The notes: generated by a model from the sequence alone, not told the origin. A stretch of 64,000 bases of DNA from an uncultured Planctomycetia bacterium (GCA_964622605.1 CAZUQR010000001.1:135265-199264), one strand, 5' to 3'. Positions 42,776-49,480 are shown, counted from the stretch's first letter. Numbers and translations are program-made.

Positions 42776-44518
42776 ATGGGATCCCTCAGAGAACGCCTCC
42801 AAGAAATCCTCATTAAAAACAAGCTGATCACCGCCGACGACCTCAAGCTGGCCCTCCAGGTCCAGAAGGAGCACGGCGGCAGGCTCAGCGACGTCCTCGT
42901 CAAGCTGAACCTGGTCGGCGAGAAGGACCTCCTGCTGGCCCTGAGCGAGGGCCTGGGCTTCCCGCCCATCTCGCTGTCGCGTTTCAAGATCGACGACGAA
43001 GTGCTCAAGCTCGTGCCGCGGGACATGGCTAAGCATTATCAGATCATCCCCGTCGCCAAGATGGGACGCGCCCTGACCGTCGCGATGGCCGACCCCTTGA
43101 ACATCTTTGCCATCGACGACGTCAAGAGCCTGACGGGCTTCGAGATCAACCCCATCATCGCCTCCCAGAAGGAGATCAACCAGACGATCGAGCAGTATTA
43201 CGACGAGCCCGCCACCCAGGTGATCGACGAGATCATCAAGGAGGTCTCGGAGATCGACATCGAGGTCGTCAAGGCGACGCAGGAGGCGGGCCCCGACACG
43301 CAGGAGCTGGTCAGGCTCACGCGCGAGGTGCCCGTCATCAAGATCACGAACCTCATCATCGAGCAGGCGATCGAGATGGGCGCGAGCGACATCCTGATCG
43401 AGCCCTTTGAGCGCACGATGCGCGTGCGGCTGCGTATCGACGGGTTGCTGCGCGAGATCGAGTCGCCGCCGCTGAAGTTCCACGCGCCCATCGTCTCGCG
43501 CATCAAGGTCGTCTCGGAGCTGGACATCGCCGAGCACCGCCTGCCGCAGGACGGCCGCTTCAAGATCAAGATGACGGACCGTTTCGTCGATTTCCGCGTC
43601 TCGGTCCTGCCGACCTTTTACGGCGAGAAGGTCGCGCTGCGTATCCTCGACAAGAGCACGGCGACGCTCGATATCGACCGGCTGGGATTCGACAACCAGA
43701 CGTTGGCGACGGTCAAGGCGTCCAGCGACCGCCCCCACGGGATGATCATCGCGTGCGGCCCGACGGGCTCAGGCAAGACGACGACCCTGTATTCCATCCT
43801 TAAGTACGTCGACAGCCCCGAGGACAACATCGTTACCGTCGAGGACCCCGTCGAGTATCAACTCGATGGGATCAATCAGGTCTCGATACGCCCCGAGATC
43901 GGTCTGTCCTTTGCCAGCTGCCTGCGTTCGATCCTGCGCCAGGACCCGGACGTGATCATGGTCGGGGAGATCCGCGACTTCGAGACGGTGGATATCGCCA
44001 TCAAGAGCGCGTTGACGGGGCACATGGTGCTGACCACCCTGCACACGACGACCGCCGCGGGCTCCATCATCCGCCTGGTCAACATGGGCGTGGAGCCGTT
44101 CCTGATCACCTCGTCCGTCATCTGCGTGGTGAACCAGCGCCTGGTGCGCAAGGTCTGCGAGGCCTGCAAGGAGAGCCATCCCTTGAGCGACACGGTGATC
44201 GAGACGCTGGGGTTGACGAAGAAGGGCAGGGAGCCGATCCTGGCGTATCGCGGCAAGGGGTGCAAGCGTTGTTTGAATATGGGATATAGCGGCCGTGTCG
44301 TCATCGGCGAGGTCATCGTGCTGACGCCGACGATCAAGGAGCTCATCCTGAACCGCGCCCAGGAGTACGAGGTCAAGGCCGCCTCGCGGCTGGAGGGGAT
44401 GAAGTCCCTGCGCGAGAACGGCGTCGCGAAGGTATTGGAGGGCGTCACGTCGCTGGAGGAGATCCTGCGCGTCACCGCCCCCGACGAGCCGCTGGACAAA
44501 AAGAAAAAAGAAAAGTAG
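42776..44518 (+). CDS. pilB: Type IV pilus assembly ATPase PilB/GspE family, paralogue 1
   Basis: MshEN-like N-terminus, Walker A GPTGSGKTTT, Asp box/Walker B DPDVIMVGEIRD, His box TGHMVLTTLHT and the tetracysteine motif CEACK..CKRC. Confidence 0.88.
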   Translation: MGSLRERLQEILIKNKLITADDLKLALQVQKEHGGRLSDVLVKLNLVGEKDLLLALSEGLGFPPISLSRFKIDDEVLKLVPRDMAKHYQIIPVAKMGRALTVAMADPLNIFAIDDVKSLTGFEINPIIASQKEINQTIEQYYDEPATQVIDEIIKEVSEIDIEVVKATQEAGPDTQELVRLTREVPVIKITNLIIEQAIEMGASDILIEPFERTMRVRLRIDGLLREIESPPLKFHAPIVSRIKVVSELDIAEHRLPQDGRFKIKMTDRFVDFRVSVLPTFYGEKVALRILDKSTATLDIDRLGFDNQTLATVKASSDRPHGMIIACGPTGSGKTTTLYSILKYVDSPEDNIVTVEDPVEYQLDGINQVSIRPEIGLSFASCLRSILRQDPDVIMVGEIRDFETVDIAIKSALTGHMVLTTLHTTTAAGSIIRLVNMGVEPFLITSSVICVVNQRLVRKVCEACKESHPLSDTVIETLGLTKKGREPILAYRGKGCKRCLNMGYSGRVVIGEVIVLTPTIKELILNRAQEYEVKAASRLEGMKSLRENGVAKVLEGVTSLEEILRVTAPDEPLDKKKKEK

Positions 44519-44539
44519 GGACACGACAGCGTTGCGGAC

Positions 44540-46261
<1,722 letters not shown>

Positions 46262-46300
46262 CTTTATTTCGGACGCCAACGGCGTTATAATAGGAGTGTT

Positions 46301-47371
46301 ATGAACGTTCCTGTGAATACCATACTGATCATCGACCGCGACGAGGCCGTCTGCGCCCACCTGCGGGACGTCCTGGGCGTGCGTGGTTTCGAGGTGACAA
46401 CGGCCTGCACGGGGGGCTCTGGCCTGGACCTCTTCATGCGTTTGGTGCCGGCGATGGTGATGCTCGATCTGGCGATCCAGGACCTGGACATCCGCTACAT
46501 GATCCGCGAGATGAGACGCATCGACGAGCAGACGGTCGTCGTCTTGATGGGGTATCCCGACGAGGTGAACCTCGTCGATGAGACGCAGTCGGCCCGGGCG
46601 ACCGACTTTTTGGAGAAGCCCCTGAGGACGGAGAAGGTGATCTTCAAGGCCCGGCAGCTCCTCGACGTCCGGGAGACCCTGAGCACCCGGCTGGGATCCC
46701 TAGAGAAGATGGAAGAGAATGTGGTGCATCTGCAAAAGCAGCACCTGCTTCTTGCCCGGCGGATGGAAGAGACCCTGGGCAATCTCGCGCGCCTCGGCGG
46801 GGATTTCCGGGAGACGTACCTGAGGTCGCTCAGGTCGATGGCGCGCGCCCTGGACAGCCGCCACCGTTATACCTATTCGCACTGCGATAACGTGGCCCGT
46901 TGCGCCGAGCTGATCGGTCGGCGCATGGGCGTTGAGGCGGCGTACCTGGATGACATGCGTGAGGCCTGTTTCTTGCATGACCTGGGAAAGATGGGGCTTC
47001 CGGCGACGGTCCTCACGAAACCCGGCACCCTTTCGCCCGAAGAGACCGCCGAGATGCGGCTGCATCCCGTCCGGGGGGCCCAGATACTGGAGCCCTTGAG
47101 CTTCATGCCCCACGTCATCTCGTTTGTCCGTCACCACCATGAGCGCTGGGATGGAAAGGGTTATCCCGACGGTTTGTCGGGAGAGCGCATTCCGCTGGGT
47201 GCCCGTATCATAGCGGTCGCCGACAGCTATGATGCCATGGTCTCACCCAGGTCCTACCGGCGCGCGGGCTTGAGCCTGGGGGAGACGAAAGAGGAGTTCG
47301 CGCGCCACAGCGGGTCTCAGTTTGACCCGAAGATCGTCAACGCTTTTCTCAAATCTCTCGAAGACCTCTGA
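46301..47371 (+). CDS. Response regulator receiver fused to an HD-GYP c-di-GMP phosphodiesterase domain
   Basis: REC domain (ILIIDRDE..MVMLDLAIQD..FLEKP) and an intact HD-GYP (FLHDLGK, HHERWDGKGYPDGL). Confidence 0.85.
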   Translation: MNVPVNTILIIDRDEAVCAHLRDVLGVRGFEVTTACTGGSGLDLFMRLVPAMVMLDLAIQDLDIRYMIREMRRIDEQTVVVLMGYPDEVNLVDETQSARATDFLEKPLRTEKVIFKARQLLDVRETLSTRLGSLEKMEENVVHLQKQHLLLARRMEETLGNLARLGGDFRETYLRSLRSMARALDSRHRYTYSHCDNVARCAELIGRRMGVEAAYLDDMREACFLHDLGKMGLPATVLTKPGTLSPEETAEMRLHPVRGAQILEPLSFMPHVISFVRHHHERWDGKGYPDGLSGERIPLGARIIAVADSYDAMVSPRSYRRAGLSLGETKEEFARHSGSQFDPKIVNAFLKSLEDL

Positions 47372-47382
47372 TAAGGGGGCGT

Positions 47383-48576
47383 ATGTCGCTTTTCGGTTAT
47401 GTCGCCAAGGACAGCCAGGGCCTGAAACTTTCGGGCATACTCGAGGCAGGGGATCAGCACGAGGCGATCAGCGTCTTGCACAAGAAGGGCCTGATCGTCA
47501 TCTCGGTCCGCGAAGAGAAGGCCAAGAAGGTTGCAGAGAAGGGGGTCAAGCTCGACGATCTCGTCATCTTTTCCCGGCAGTTGGCCACCATGGTCGAGAG
47601 CGGCATCACCCTCGTCCAGGCCCTCCATATTTTGAGCGAGCAATCGGAGAACAAGACGCTCGCCGGCGTGACCCTGAACATCAAGGAGGCCATCGAAGGC
47701 GGCTCGAGCCTGCACGAGGCGATGGCCCGCCACCCGAAGATCTTCTCGCACCTTTACATCAACATGGTGAAGGCGGGCGAGACGTCGGGCCTCCTGGATG
47801 AGATCCTCGACCGGTTGTCGACGTACCTGGAGAAGACCGCGGCCCTGCAGCGCAAGGTGAAGTCGTCGCTCGTCTATCCCGTCGTGGTCATCACCATGGC
47901 CATCATCATCACGCTCGTCCTCCTGATCAAGGTCGTGCCGACCTTTGAAGGCATCTTTGCGACGCTGGGCGGGACCCTGCCGCTGCCGACGCAGATCCTG
48001 ATCGGGATATCCAATACGTTGCGGCGCTTGTTCCTTGTGATAGTCATCCTGTTCGTGTTCGTCGTCTTCCTCTTCAAGAAGTTTATCGATACGCCCAAGG
48101 GGCGCTACTGGTTCGATCGCCGGACCCTACGCCTGCCGATCTTCGGGCCGTTGATGCGCAAGGTCGTCGTCGCCAAGTTCTCGCGGACATTGGCGACCCT
48201 CGTCAAGAGCGGTGTGCCTATCCTCAATGCCCTGGAGATCGTCGGCAAGACCTCCGACAACCTCGTGGTCGAGGAGGCGGTCAACAGGGCCCGGGACTCG
48301 ATCCGCGAGGGCGAGCCCATCTCCGAGCCCCTGGCCAAGAGCGGTGTCTTTCCGCCCATGGTCGTGCGCATGATTTCCGTGGGAGAGCAGACGGGCCAGC
48401 TGGAGCACATGCTCAACAAGATCGCCGACTTCTATGACGAGCAGGTCGACGCCTCGGTCAGCGGCCTGACCTCCATGATCGAGCCCCTCGTCATCGGCTT
48501 TTTGGGCATCATCATCGGCGGTATCGTCATCGCCCTCTTCATGCCCATCTTCAAGATCACCGAGCTCATCCGCTAG
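47383..48576 (+). CDS. pilC: Type IV pilus platform protein PilC (GspF family)
   Basis: Two T2SSF repeats and three TM segments. Typical PilC length and position. Confidence 0.9.
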   Translation: MSLFGYVAKDSQGLKLSGILEAGDQHEAISVLHKKGLIVISVREEKAKKVAEKGVKLDDLVIFSRQLATMVESGITLVQALHILSEQSENKTLAGVTLNIKEAIEGGSSLHEAMARHPKIFSHLYINMVKAGETSGLLDEILDRLSTYLEKTAALQRKVKSSLVYPVVVITMAIIITLVLLIKVVPTFEGIFATLGGTLPLPTQILIGISNTLRRLFLVIVILFVFVVFLFKKFIDTPKGRYWFDRRTLRLPIFGPLMRKVVVAKFSRTLATLVKSGVPILNALEIVGKTSDNLVVEEAVNRARDSIREGEPISEPLAKSGVFPPMVVRMISVGEQTGQLEHMLNKIADFYDEQVDASVSGLTSMIEPLVIGFLGIIIGGIVIALFMPIFKITELIR

Positions 48577-48754
48577 TTCTTCTCGTCTTGCCCCCGCTGA
48601 CATGTTCATTGGACGGATCCCCGGACGGATCCCCTTCTGCCTGACGGGAGAGGAGGAACATCCGGCCGCCCCCCTTGAAAGCTGGCAAATACATGTTACA
48701 CTTATGATAGAGAAAACCGTGTAAGTCGATCAAGGTAAACCACGGCGGGTAACC

Positions 48755-48848
48755 GTCACCCTGGCAGGGGTTCGAAAGAGTGGGGCACAAAGCTACAGGG
48801 CCTAATCGTCTGTATTTTACGTAGGGCAGCCAGTTGCCGATAGAACAG
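48755..48848 (+). promoter_or_regulatory. c-di-GMP-I (GEMM-I) riboswitch aptamer candidate
   Basis: Blocks UUCGAAAGAGUGGGGCACAAAGC, GCCUAA and GUAGGGCAGCCAGUUGCCGAUAG match the conserved GEMM-I core as I recall it from the V. cholerae Vc2 aptamer. Closing helix CUGGC (48761-65) / GCCAG (48829-33). GNRA loop GAAA plus a CCUAA receptor. Confidence 0.8.
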
Positions 48849-48851
48849 AGT

Positions 48852-48896
48852 GCCTACCTCTTTTTGCCTTTACAAGGGGGTAGGCTTTTTATCTTT
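48852..48896 (+). terminator. Intrinsic terminator, putative expression platform of the riboswitch
   Basis: GCCTACCTC (48852-48860) pairs with GGGGGTAGGC (48876-48885), followed by TTTTTATCTTTC. Confidence 0.75.
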
Positions 48897-48914
48897 CTGT
48901 CATGCAAAGGGTTC

Positions 48915-48943
48915 TTGACAGGGGAAGGAGGTGGTGATATAAT
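48915..48943 (+). promoter_or_regulatory. Consensus sigma70 promoter upstream of pilA
   Basis: TTGACA (48915-48920), 17 bp spacer, TATAAT (48938-48943), about 110 nt upstream of the pilA ATG. Confidence 0.7.
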
Positions 48944-49054
48944 TTTTCCACAATTTGGTCGCTTTGCGCCGACGACGAAATAATGAGGTATTGTTGTCCG
49001 TCTTCTTGGTTTTAGGGCGCAAGGCAATCTAAGCCAGGAAAGGAGGTAAGAATC

Positions 49055-49480
49055 ATGCGCTCTAGGAGAAAAGGTTTTACGCTCGTTGAAATCATGATCG
49101 TTGTGGCCATCATCGTTCTCTTGGCGGCCATCGCAATCCCGAACCTGTTGCGTGCCCGCCTGAACGCGAACGAGGCGACGGCGATCGCGACGATGAGGAC
49201 CTTCAGCACGGCCATGGAGAGTTACCGTGCGGCCCAGACGCCGCCGACGTATCCGAGTGCCCTGACGAACCTCAACGGCAGCAATCCGCCGTACATCGAC
49301 AACGTACTGGCAAGCGGGAACAAGTCGGGTTACTTCTTTACGTTGAGCGCCGGCGCCAACACGTACACCGTCGTTGCGACACCGCAGGCGGTTAACGTGA
49401 CGGGGAGCCGGAACTTCTTCGTGGATTCGTCTGGTGTTGTTCGCGTCGGCACCTCGACTGCAGGCACACCGATCGAGTAA
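49055..49480 (+). CDS. pilA: Type IV pilin (PilA-like major pilin)
   Basis: Class III signal MRSRRKG/FTLVEIMIVVAIIVLLAAIAIPNLL with Glu5. RBS AGGAAAGGAGG. There are no cysteines, and the C-terminus is Ser/Thr-rich (VGTSTAGTPIE). Confidence 0.9.
   Translation: MRSRRKGFTLVEIMIVVAIIVLLAAIAIPNLLRARLNANEATAIATMRTFSTAMESYRAAQTPPTYPSALTNLNGSNPPYIDNVLASGNKSGYFFTLSAGANTYTVVATPQAVNVTGSRNFFVDSSGVVRVGTSTAGTPIE

Follow-up and report, generated by a model that had tools for sequence, protein, structure and literature searches.

A class I c-di-GMP riboswitch with a four-way-junction P2 arm, probably a transcriptional OFF switch, ahead of a type IV pilin gene

What lies in the long spacer that separates pilC from pilA in this type IV pilus cluster, and how might it act on the pilin gene? 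The window (the whole stretch of 64,000 nucleotides that was analysed) carries a cluster of two PilB-like ATPases with MshEN domains, an HD-GYP response regulator, PilC, a pilin, a TPR protein, PilMNO and a secretin. The spacer measures 478 bp from the stop of the pilC-like gene (48576) to the pilin ATG (49055). An earlier note, made from the sequence alone, described it as less GC-rich than its flanks, which is correct (0.46-0.49 vs about 0.58-0.64). The same note placed in it a GEMM-I aptamer with a GNRA tetraloop and a CCUAA receptor, then an intrinsic terminator, possibly forming an OFF switch. This reading is now backed by an RF01051 match, covariation in 62 distinct relatives and folding. 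The genes concerned are:

47383..48576, + strand: PilC/GspF-type platform protein gene, upstream of the riboswitch (Pfam T2SSF, 2e-67)
49040-46, + strand: Shine-Dalgarno sequence of pilA, AAGGAGG (sequence)
49055..49480, + strand: type IV pilin or pseudopilin gene, pilA, the gene under presumed regulation (Pfam N_methyl, E=1.5e-08; translation)

The translated pilA product has 141 aa, with a G/FTLVE prepilin motif at its N terminus. Small ORFs within the spacer were limited to short, unconserved frames. An exact 12-nt tandem duplication, GGACGGATCCCC GGACGGATCCCC, occupies 48611-48634, 35 nt 3' of the pilC stop codon.

By sequence and structure tests, the element in the spacer is a genuine class I c-di-GMP riboswitch. 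We scanned the whole 64-kb window with all 4227 Rfam families, and RF01051 (c-di-GMP-I/GEMM-I) matched 48724-48841 on the + strand (E=1.4e-06), covering the full model (1-87) with 49.2 bits against a gathering score of 35. No other family reached its threshold. The control that had been suggested alongside this search, c-di-GMP-II (RF01786), gave no match even at E<=10 in 48500-49100, where a permissive scan added noise only. Our own covariance model (R1) scores the window aptamer at 137.6 bits. Its parts are as follows:

48724..48842, + strand: c-di-GMP-I (GEMM-I) aptamer (RF01051, own model R1, covariation)
48725-28/48838-41, + strand: helix P1, GUCG/CGAU (RF01051 alignment)
48734, + strand: ligand-contacting G, equivalent of Vc2 G20 (RF01051 alignment)
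48734-41, + strand: GGUAAACC, in the 5' part of the aptamer
48735-36/48787-88, + strand: equivalents of G21-C46 and C22-G45 (RF01051 alignment)
48774-77, + strand: GAAA (GNRA) tetraloop on P2 (sequence, RF01051 alignment)
C48786/G48829, + strand: equivalent of the interhelical pair C44-G83 (RF01051 alignment)
A48789, + strand: equivalent of A47 (RF01051 alignment)
48791-48835, + strand: helix P3 (RF01051 alignment)
48801-05, + strand: CCUAA receptor in P3, facing UAGGG at 48822-26 (sequence, RF01051 alignment)
C48837, + strand: equivalent of C92 (RF01051 alignment)

The elements of a type 1 tertiary contact, the GNRA tetraloop on P2 and the tetraloop receptor in P3, are both present. The Rfam alignment puts GGUAAACCAC at 48734-43, and among 11 relatives the aligned region shows no variation at G11 or G12. 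In Vc2, G20, A47, C92 and C44-G83 serve as ligand contacts or interhelical pair (PMC5888326, PMC4744006). Judging from the G at the position 20 equivalent, the window aptamer appears to be of the canonical c-di-GMP-specific type.

The boundaries first proposed for the aptamer have to be redrawn. The 83-nt RNA quoted in the earlier note lies at 48761-48843 on the + strand. Its feature began at 48755, about 30 nt downstream of the actual start, so that the 5' third was missed, with the 5' strands of P1 (48725-28) and P2 (48740-43) and with G 48734. Nor do CUGGC (48761-65) and GCCAG (48829-33) form the closing helix that it described: CUGGC falls in the loop and 3' side of an inserted hairpin (hairpin B, below), GCCAG is the 3' strand of P3, and the closest relative, L007, has CUCUCAA.

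The element is widespread among related pilus clusters. With the PilC protein we recovered 80 genomic loci, mostly from metagenome-assembled genomes of Candidatus Omnitrophota, the rest being labelled uncultured Planctomycetia/Planctomycetales, Deltaproteobacteria or Patescibacteria. The 64-kb window itself matches JGI and Logan metagenome contigs. A GEMM-I element lies directly 3' of pilC in 20 of the 80 loci (Rfam, regular-expression search and own covariance model), and a pattern scan of metagenome contigs yielded 52 further stretches. Some 50 such contigs carry the element. Wherever the sequence 3' of a pilC-linked copy was looked at, pilA is syntenic with the element. Two more distant PilC relatives (L022 4701-7203, L024 4618-7194) carry an rRNA operon (16S, tRNAs, 23S) directly 3' of pilC, in place of riboswitch and pilin.

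Covariation supports the fold across these relatives. The covariance model was built from four sequences of near-identical length and replaced a MAFFT alignment (A1), which we dropped as structurally meaningless in the insert region. In the model-based alignment of 62 distinct sequences, which is fitted to the model and so biased toward the modelled structure, 95.3% of paired cells are complementary compared with 33-44% for slid partners, and 24 of the 34 pairs show double-sided changes, values reached in 0/500 shuffles. All nine helices are 84-100% paired in the same sequences and form two arms, P2 and P3, on a junction closed by P1. Folds of 18 single sequences, which are independent of the model, agree with the model-fitted covariation.

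The P2 arm of the window aptamer departs from the known architecture. In relatives without the insert, P2 is a plain 16-nt hairpin, CCAUUC-GAAA-GAAUGG, whereas in the window it is split after base pair 4 and opens into a four-way junction:

48740..48783, + strand: P2 four-way junction, whole (RNAfold, covariation)
48740-43/48780-83, + strand: P2 basal stem, CCAC/GUGG (RNAfold, covariation)
48744-57, + strand: inserted hairpin A, GGCGG-GUAA-CCGUC (RNAfold, covariation)
48758-71, + strand: inserted hairpin B, ACCCU-GGCA-GGGGU (RNAfold, covariation)
48772-79, + strand: P2 distal stem UC/GA (48772-73/48778-79), closing the GAAA tetraloop (RNAfold)

Both extra hairpins sit in the 5' strand of P2, the 3' strand is unbroken and the junction has zero unpaired bases. 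The same junction is found in the window and 17 other distinct sequences (RNAfold, 18 folded), 14 of them without unpaired junction bases. Across 24 distinct sequences, hairpins A and B are 96.6% and 94.4% paired, and 5/5 pairs in each have changed on both sides. Hairpin A differs so far between relatives that its sequences are unrelated (GGCGG/CCGUC, CCUGCC/GGCAGG, CCCUGUACC/GGUACAGGG, UCGGUCG/CGGCCGA). The continuous 3' strand would allow the basal and distal stems of P2 to stack, in which case GAAA could still reach the CCUAA receptor. Both hairpins remain folded in the predicted aptamer and antiterminator states alike, and they may tune folding kinetics or bind a partner. A limited literature search turned up no description of a GEMM-I RNA with a four-way-junction P2, which is probably an undescribed peripheral elaboration of a known kind of riboswitch.

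Insertions occur elsewhere in the relatives too. The P3 loop is enlarged in this way in L013 and L067. A second two-hairpin insertion of about 50 nt is seen in L016 (4350-4400), L019 and L020 between the GGC bulge after P2 and the G45-C46 equivalent, showing that insertions are tolerated at a second place as well, near the ligand pocket. In L010 (4440-4575), and also in L124 and L106, the aptamer is interrupted in its 3' part, downstream of GCAGCC and ahead of the closing strand, by three tandem repeats of 44 nt (AGCCCRGRAAGGGCGAACCTCCGCATCCATGYTAAGGAGGGTTC); these elements may be degenerate or further elaborated riboswitches. Another set of loci (L009 4506, L011 4381 and 4519, L015 4413, L109 1195) has a repeated GCAGAARGCGGCAYACC followed by a hairpin and GGGUGUG, adjoining the riboswitch or the terminator. 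This GCAGAARGCGGCAYACC element is absent from the window.

Downstream of the aptamer, the stem and U-run that the earlier note pointed out are indeed present, and one strand of the stem has a second possible partner in P2:

48852..48898, + strand: intrinsic terminator with U-tract (MFE, energy evaluation, inverted repeat I2)
48774..48788, + strand: aptamer-side strand of the putative antiterminator, GAAAGAGUGGGGCAC, comprising the GNRA loop, P2 3' strand and pocket residues (nascent-transcript MFE, duplex energy)
48850..48864, + strand: switching strand GUGCCUACCUCUUUU, either terminator 5' strand or partner of 48774-88 (folding, kept complementarity)

The terminator has a 12-bp stem (48852-63/48874-85; -17.6 kcal/mol), a 10-nt loop and the U-tract UUUUUAUCUUUCU. 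A simple terminator scanner missed it because the loop of 10 nt exceeds the scanner's limit of 8. Relatives keep the stem as (G)CCUAYYC...GRRUAGG(C), while loop (4 to >30 nt) and linker are variable. A search for CCTAYYY..RRRTAGG gave a single match in the 64 kb, where 0.04 would be expected, and one in each related locus, placed immediately 3' of the aptamer every time; the exception is one stray match in L085 far from the pilC-pilA spacer. We therefore reject the idea of a generic genome-wide terminator or repeat. That the inverted repeat is a protein operator is unlikely, given the varying loop length.

Which part of the aptamer would compete for the terminator? It had been suggested that CCUAC of the terminator pairs with GUAGG of the aptamer. 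This pairing is possible in the window but is not conserved, the relatives having GAAUGG, GUAAGG or GAAAGG there, and we reject it as a conserved antiterminator. The conserved competitor is instead the pairing of GAAAGAGUGGGGCAC (48774-88) with GUGCCUACCUCUUUU (48850-64). A third candidate was mimicry, in which the terminator's GCCUAYYC would resemble the P3 5' strand GCCUAAUC and compete for the P3 3' strand. It was dropped because L018, L021, L060, L067 and L020, which have no CCUAA receptor, keep the same terminator sequence; folding, moreover, pointed to P2 and not P3 as the competitor. When transcripts are cut before the terminator 3' strand, the terminator 5' strand pairs in most related loci with a stretch that runs from the GNRA loop through the 3' strand of P2 into GGGRC, which explains the conservation of the terminator stem.

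In the window, the duplex 48774-88/48850-64 is worth -16.9 kcal/mol and ranks 10 of 1987 control 17-mers. Values between -12.2 and -19.6 kcal/mol are found in 14 of 17 loci, and the duplex belongs to the best 0.6% of 17-mers within 3 kb in 13/17 loci and to the best 1.6% in L067. Complementarity is weak in the remaining three loci (L018, L021 and L010). In two of them (L018 4520-4566, L021 4441-4484), CCAGUURCC at the 3' end of the aptamer complements GGUAACUGG, which spans the loop and 3' strand of the terminator. These two loci seem to have an antiterminator of another kind, one that would still give an OFF switch. The complementarity is also kept in three unrelated terminator families, namely, CCUAYYCUUU, ACCCACUU and GCCCAUUYUUU. 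Terminators of the form ACCCACUU...AAGUGGGU come from non-orthologous, non-pilin metagenome loci, and those of the form GCCCAUUYUUU...GGGC from more distant pilC-linked loci (L045, L048, L059, L066).

Folding with and without an aptamer constraint, as had been proposed, gave different outcomes for nascent and full-length transcripts. For transcripts ending at 48866 or 48873, the free MFE of -41.8 kcal/mol includes the antiterminator, compared with -31.5 when the aptamer is enforced. We estimate that this gap of ~10 kcal/mol would be roughly the binding energy of a nanomolar ligand; the authors of the merRNA study quote a KD of about 1 nM (PMC3627812). The full-length transcript (MFE -56.7) contains the terminator with the aptamer enforced as well as without, and the antiterminator-enforced fold (-54.7) lies 2 kcal/mol above it. 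Thus, the switching decision has to be kinetic.

Transcription of the element, and of pilA behind it, appears to be served by two promoters (here always written promoter P1 and promoter P2, as distinct from helix P1 and arm P2), followed by a structured leader:

48675..48702, + strand: promoter P1 of the riboswitch transcript, TTGAAA, 16-nt spacer, TACACT (promoter scan 9/12)
48915..48943, + strand: promoter P2, TTGACA, 17-nt spacer, TATAAT, TG present (promoter scan 12/12)
48961..49025, + strand: structured pilA leader with a 10-bp closing stem, GCUUUGCGCC 48961-70 / GGCGCAAGGC 49016-25 (RNAalifold)

Promoter P1 has a TG one base 5' of the -10 hexamer and lies about 20 nt before the aptamer. 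Relatives keep it as cTTGAAA-N14-15-TGtTAYACTT at the same distance from the aptamer, with a spacer that varies in sequence. Between the terminator and pilA, promoter P2 is a perfect sigma-70 consensus, and the same architecture is found in 19 distinct loci. Because of its position, the riboswitch can gate only transcripts that start at promoter P1 or upstream, and it could control only part of pilA transcription, possibly a small part. No second promoter is recognisable between terminator and pilA in L018 and L021, where read-through thus seems to be needed.

Other features accompany these promoters. The spacer of promoter P2 contains a Shine-Dalgarno-like GGRAAGGAGGTG, which 19 distinct loci share and which recurs at the ribosome-binding site of pilA (49037-49047); in the promoter spacer it may serve to bind a regulator, or act at the RNA level in transcripts that read through. 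The closing stem of the pilA leader has 10 pairs, four with compensatory changes (RNAalifold, 12 loci), and the leader matches no Rfam family. We regard this stem as a candidate for a new motif in the leaders of Omnitrophota pilin genes. A 16-nt inverted repeat (48665-48680 vs 48870-48885, 81% complementary) runs from the -35 box region of promoter P1 to the terminator 3' strand. It may be relevant only to transcripts entering from pilC, and chance is a possible explanation.

The element belongs to the GEMM-I family, its structure is conserved, a terminator follows it and an alternative pairing between the two is conserved. We consider it likely that this class I c-di-GMP riboswitch, with its own promoter and a four-way P2, is a transcriptional OFF switch ahead of pilA. 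The identity of the ligand, the direction of the switch, the use of its promoter and its effect on pilin levels are inferred, as in the following model. Transcription would start from promoter P1 (48675-48702), possibly joined by read-through from pilC. As RNA polymerase moves through 48850-64, this strand would have two possible fates. In the absence of ligand, it would invade P2 and form the antiterminator with 48774-88, and polymerase would continue past the U-tract and on through promoter P2 and the leader to pilA. Bound c-di-GMP would lock P2 and the pocket; 48852-63 would then pair with 48874-85, and transcription would end at the U-tract near 48886-98. At high c-di-GMP, the share of pilin mRNA derived from promoter P1 would be lost.

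The direction of switching can be predicted from the arrangement of the strands. The antiterminator (48774-88/48850-64) draws on residues of the aptamer, and it cannot form together with the ligand-bound fold. Since the terminator is clear of the aptamer and the sole conserved cross-pairing uses residues of the bound fold, ligand binding would free the terminator strand, which argues for an OFF switch. An ON switch would require c-di-GMP to block termination and raise pilin, as in the class II pilin switch of C. difficile. In its favour, by analogy, the type IV pili of C. difficile are induced by c-di-GMP (PMC11477304), and PilB-like ATPases with MshEN domains are encoded in the same cluster here. 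We nevertheless think an ON switch very improbable: the terminator hairpin (48852-85) does not overlap the aptamer, which ends at 48841/42, and the only conserved cross-pairing takes P2 and pocket residues, so the ligand would free the terminator strand rather than capture it. A different ligand, such as 3',3'-cGAMP, is to our minds scarcely credible. Those members of GEMM-I known to be specific for cGAMP carry A at position 20. The window has G there (48734), as do the recovered relatives, and at the equivalents of A47 and C92 the window has the canonical residues. On the other side, altered specificity is known among GEMM-I-like folds, including the 3',3'-cGAMP sensors of Geobacter GEMM-Ib (PMC5888326, PMC12285248).

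More deserving of weight, although still unlikely, is the possibility that promoter P1, aptamer and terminator make up a complete unit of about 180 nt whose transcription ends at the terminator every time. The product would be a stand-alone small RNA that binds c-di-GMP and acts as a buffer or sponge, or in trans, and pilA would be transcribed from promoter P2 only. In favour of this reading are the element's own conserved promoter, the strength of the terminator and the presence of another, perfect promoter immediately 3' of it; the full-length MFE, too, always includes the terminator. There is also a precedent in merRNA, a GEMM-I RNA without a downstream ORF that was proposed as a c-di-GMP store (PMC3627812). 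Yet a constitutive terminator has no need of complementarity between its 5' strand and the P2 3' strand, and this complementarity is kept in three terminator families. In L018 and L021, with no recognisable second promoter, read-through seems needed. Furthermore, pilA accompanies the element in all pilC-linked loci whose 3' sequence was looked at, whereas merRNA has no downstream gene. Note that a small RNA and an OFF switch are compatible, as the terminated OFF product would still bind ligand.

Proteins of the same cluster fit around the proposed OFF switch. The stretch 42776-47371 encodes the two PilB-like ATPases (Pfam MshEN) and a fusion of response regulator and HD-GYP. MshEN domains are a known family of c-di-GMP receptors, so that protein-level c-di-GMP components adjoin the RNA sensor. 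The HD-GYP domain has intact motifs (HD226, HHE279, GYP287). The 24-residue c-di-GMP-binding motif of MshEN is matched only in part, with RLxxxLL-like repeats present and glycines replaced. These parts outline a testable circuit: activation of the HD-GYP phosphodiesterase would lower c-di-GMP, the riboswitch would be read through and pilin mRNA would rise.

Omnitrophota is a phylum of ultra-small cells, and we know of no regulatory experiments in it. A literature search found no paper linking c-di-GMP riboswitches to Omnitrophota. Our findings place a predicted c-di-GMP-sensing RNA directly before the major pilin gene in this uncultivated phylum. The kind of riboswitch is already known, and nothing here overturns expectations. 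The four-way-junction P2 arms are natural variants of a well-studied aptamer that show where large insertions are tolerated, and the conserved complementarity that links the 3' strand of P2 to the 5' strand of the terminator offers a clear, reusable rule by which GEMM-I elements in metagenomes can be read as ON or OFF switches. More tentatively, and with some doubt, the Omnitrophota lineage with a four-way-junction P2, some of whose members have further two-hairpin insertions, may be an undescribed structural subclass and a dual device, in which a c-di-GMP-gated feed from promoter P1 into pilA is laid over an independently controlled consensus promoter, the terminated product doubling as a c-di-GMP-binding small RNA.

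Compared with known systems, the window element is close in architecture to Vc2 of Vibrio cholerae and RF01051 type 1. It shares the three helices, the tetraloop on P2 and the receptor in P3, scores above the family threshold, and has the core GGYAAACC ... GAAA ... GGGRCRCAAAGC ... CCUAA ... AGCC.GUUGCCGA together with the equivalents of G20, A47, C92 and C44-G83. It differs in the 28-nt two-hairpin insertion in P2, which the Rfam model reads as a 36-nt loop insertion against a consensus of 8 nt, in a helix P1 of only 4 bp, and in the G21-C46/C22-G45 step, which is G-C/U-A in the window. It also has an explicit terminator and antiterminator, whereas no terminator is apparent in Vc1 and the regulatory mechanism of Vc1 and Vc2 has been described as unclear (PMC4744006). 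Geobacter GEMM-Ib (cGAMP) elements such as Gs1761 have the same fold, occur in environmental anaerobes and are linked to genes for pili and extracellular electron transfer (PMC12285248, PMC5888326), but the window aptamer keeps G at the position 20 equivalent, as expected of the c-di-GMP type. Like the window element, merRNA of the small bacterium Bdellovibrio bacteriovorus is a discrete RNA with a GEMM-I aptamer and its own promoter (PMC3627812); unlike it, merRNA measures 445 nt and has no conserved downstream ORF, whereas the window element keeps a conserved antiterminator and shares synteny with pilA across the pilC-linked loci looked at. In regulatory logic a close counterpart is found in Clostridioides difficile, where class I c-di-GMP riboswitches are established transcriptional OFF switches (PMC11477304). 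Cd1, a class I element 5' of flgB, similarly combines GEMM-I with an OFF terminator ahead of a surface appendage operon (PMC11477304), although its target is flagella and not the major type IV pilin, and the window has a second promoter between terminator and gene. The pilin operon of C. difficile is governed by a class II ON switch (PMC11477304), so the predicted OFF logic of the window pilin, while agreeing in sign with the class I switches there, would have the opposite sign to this one.
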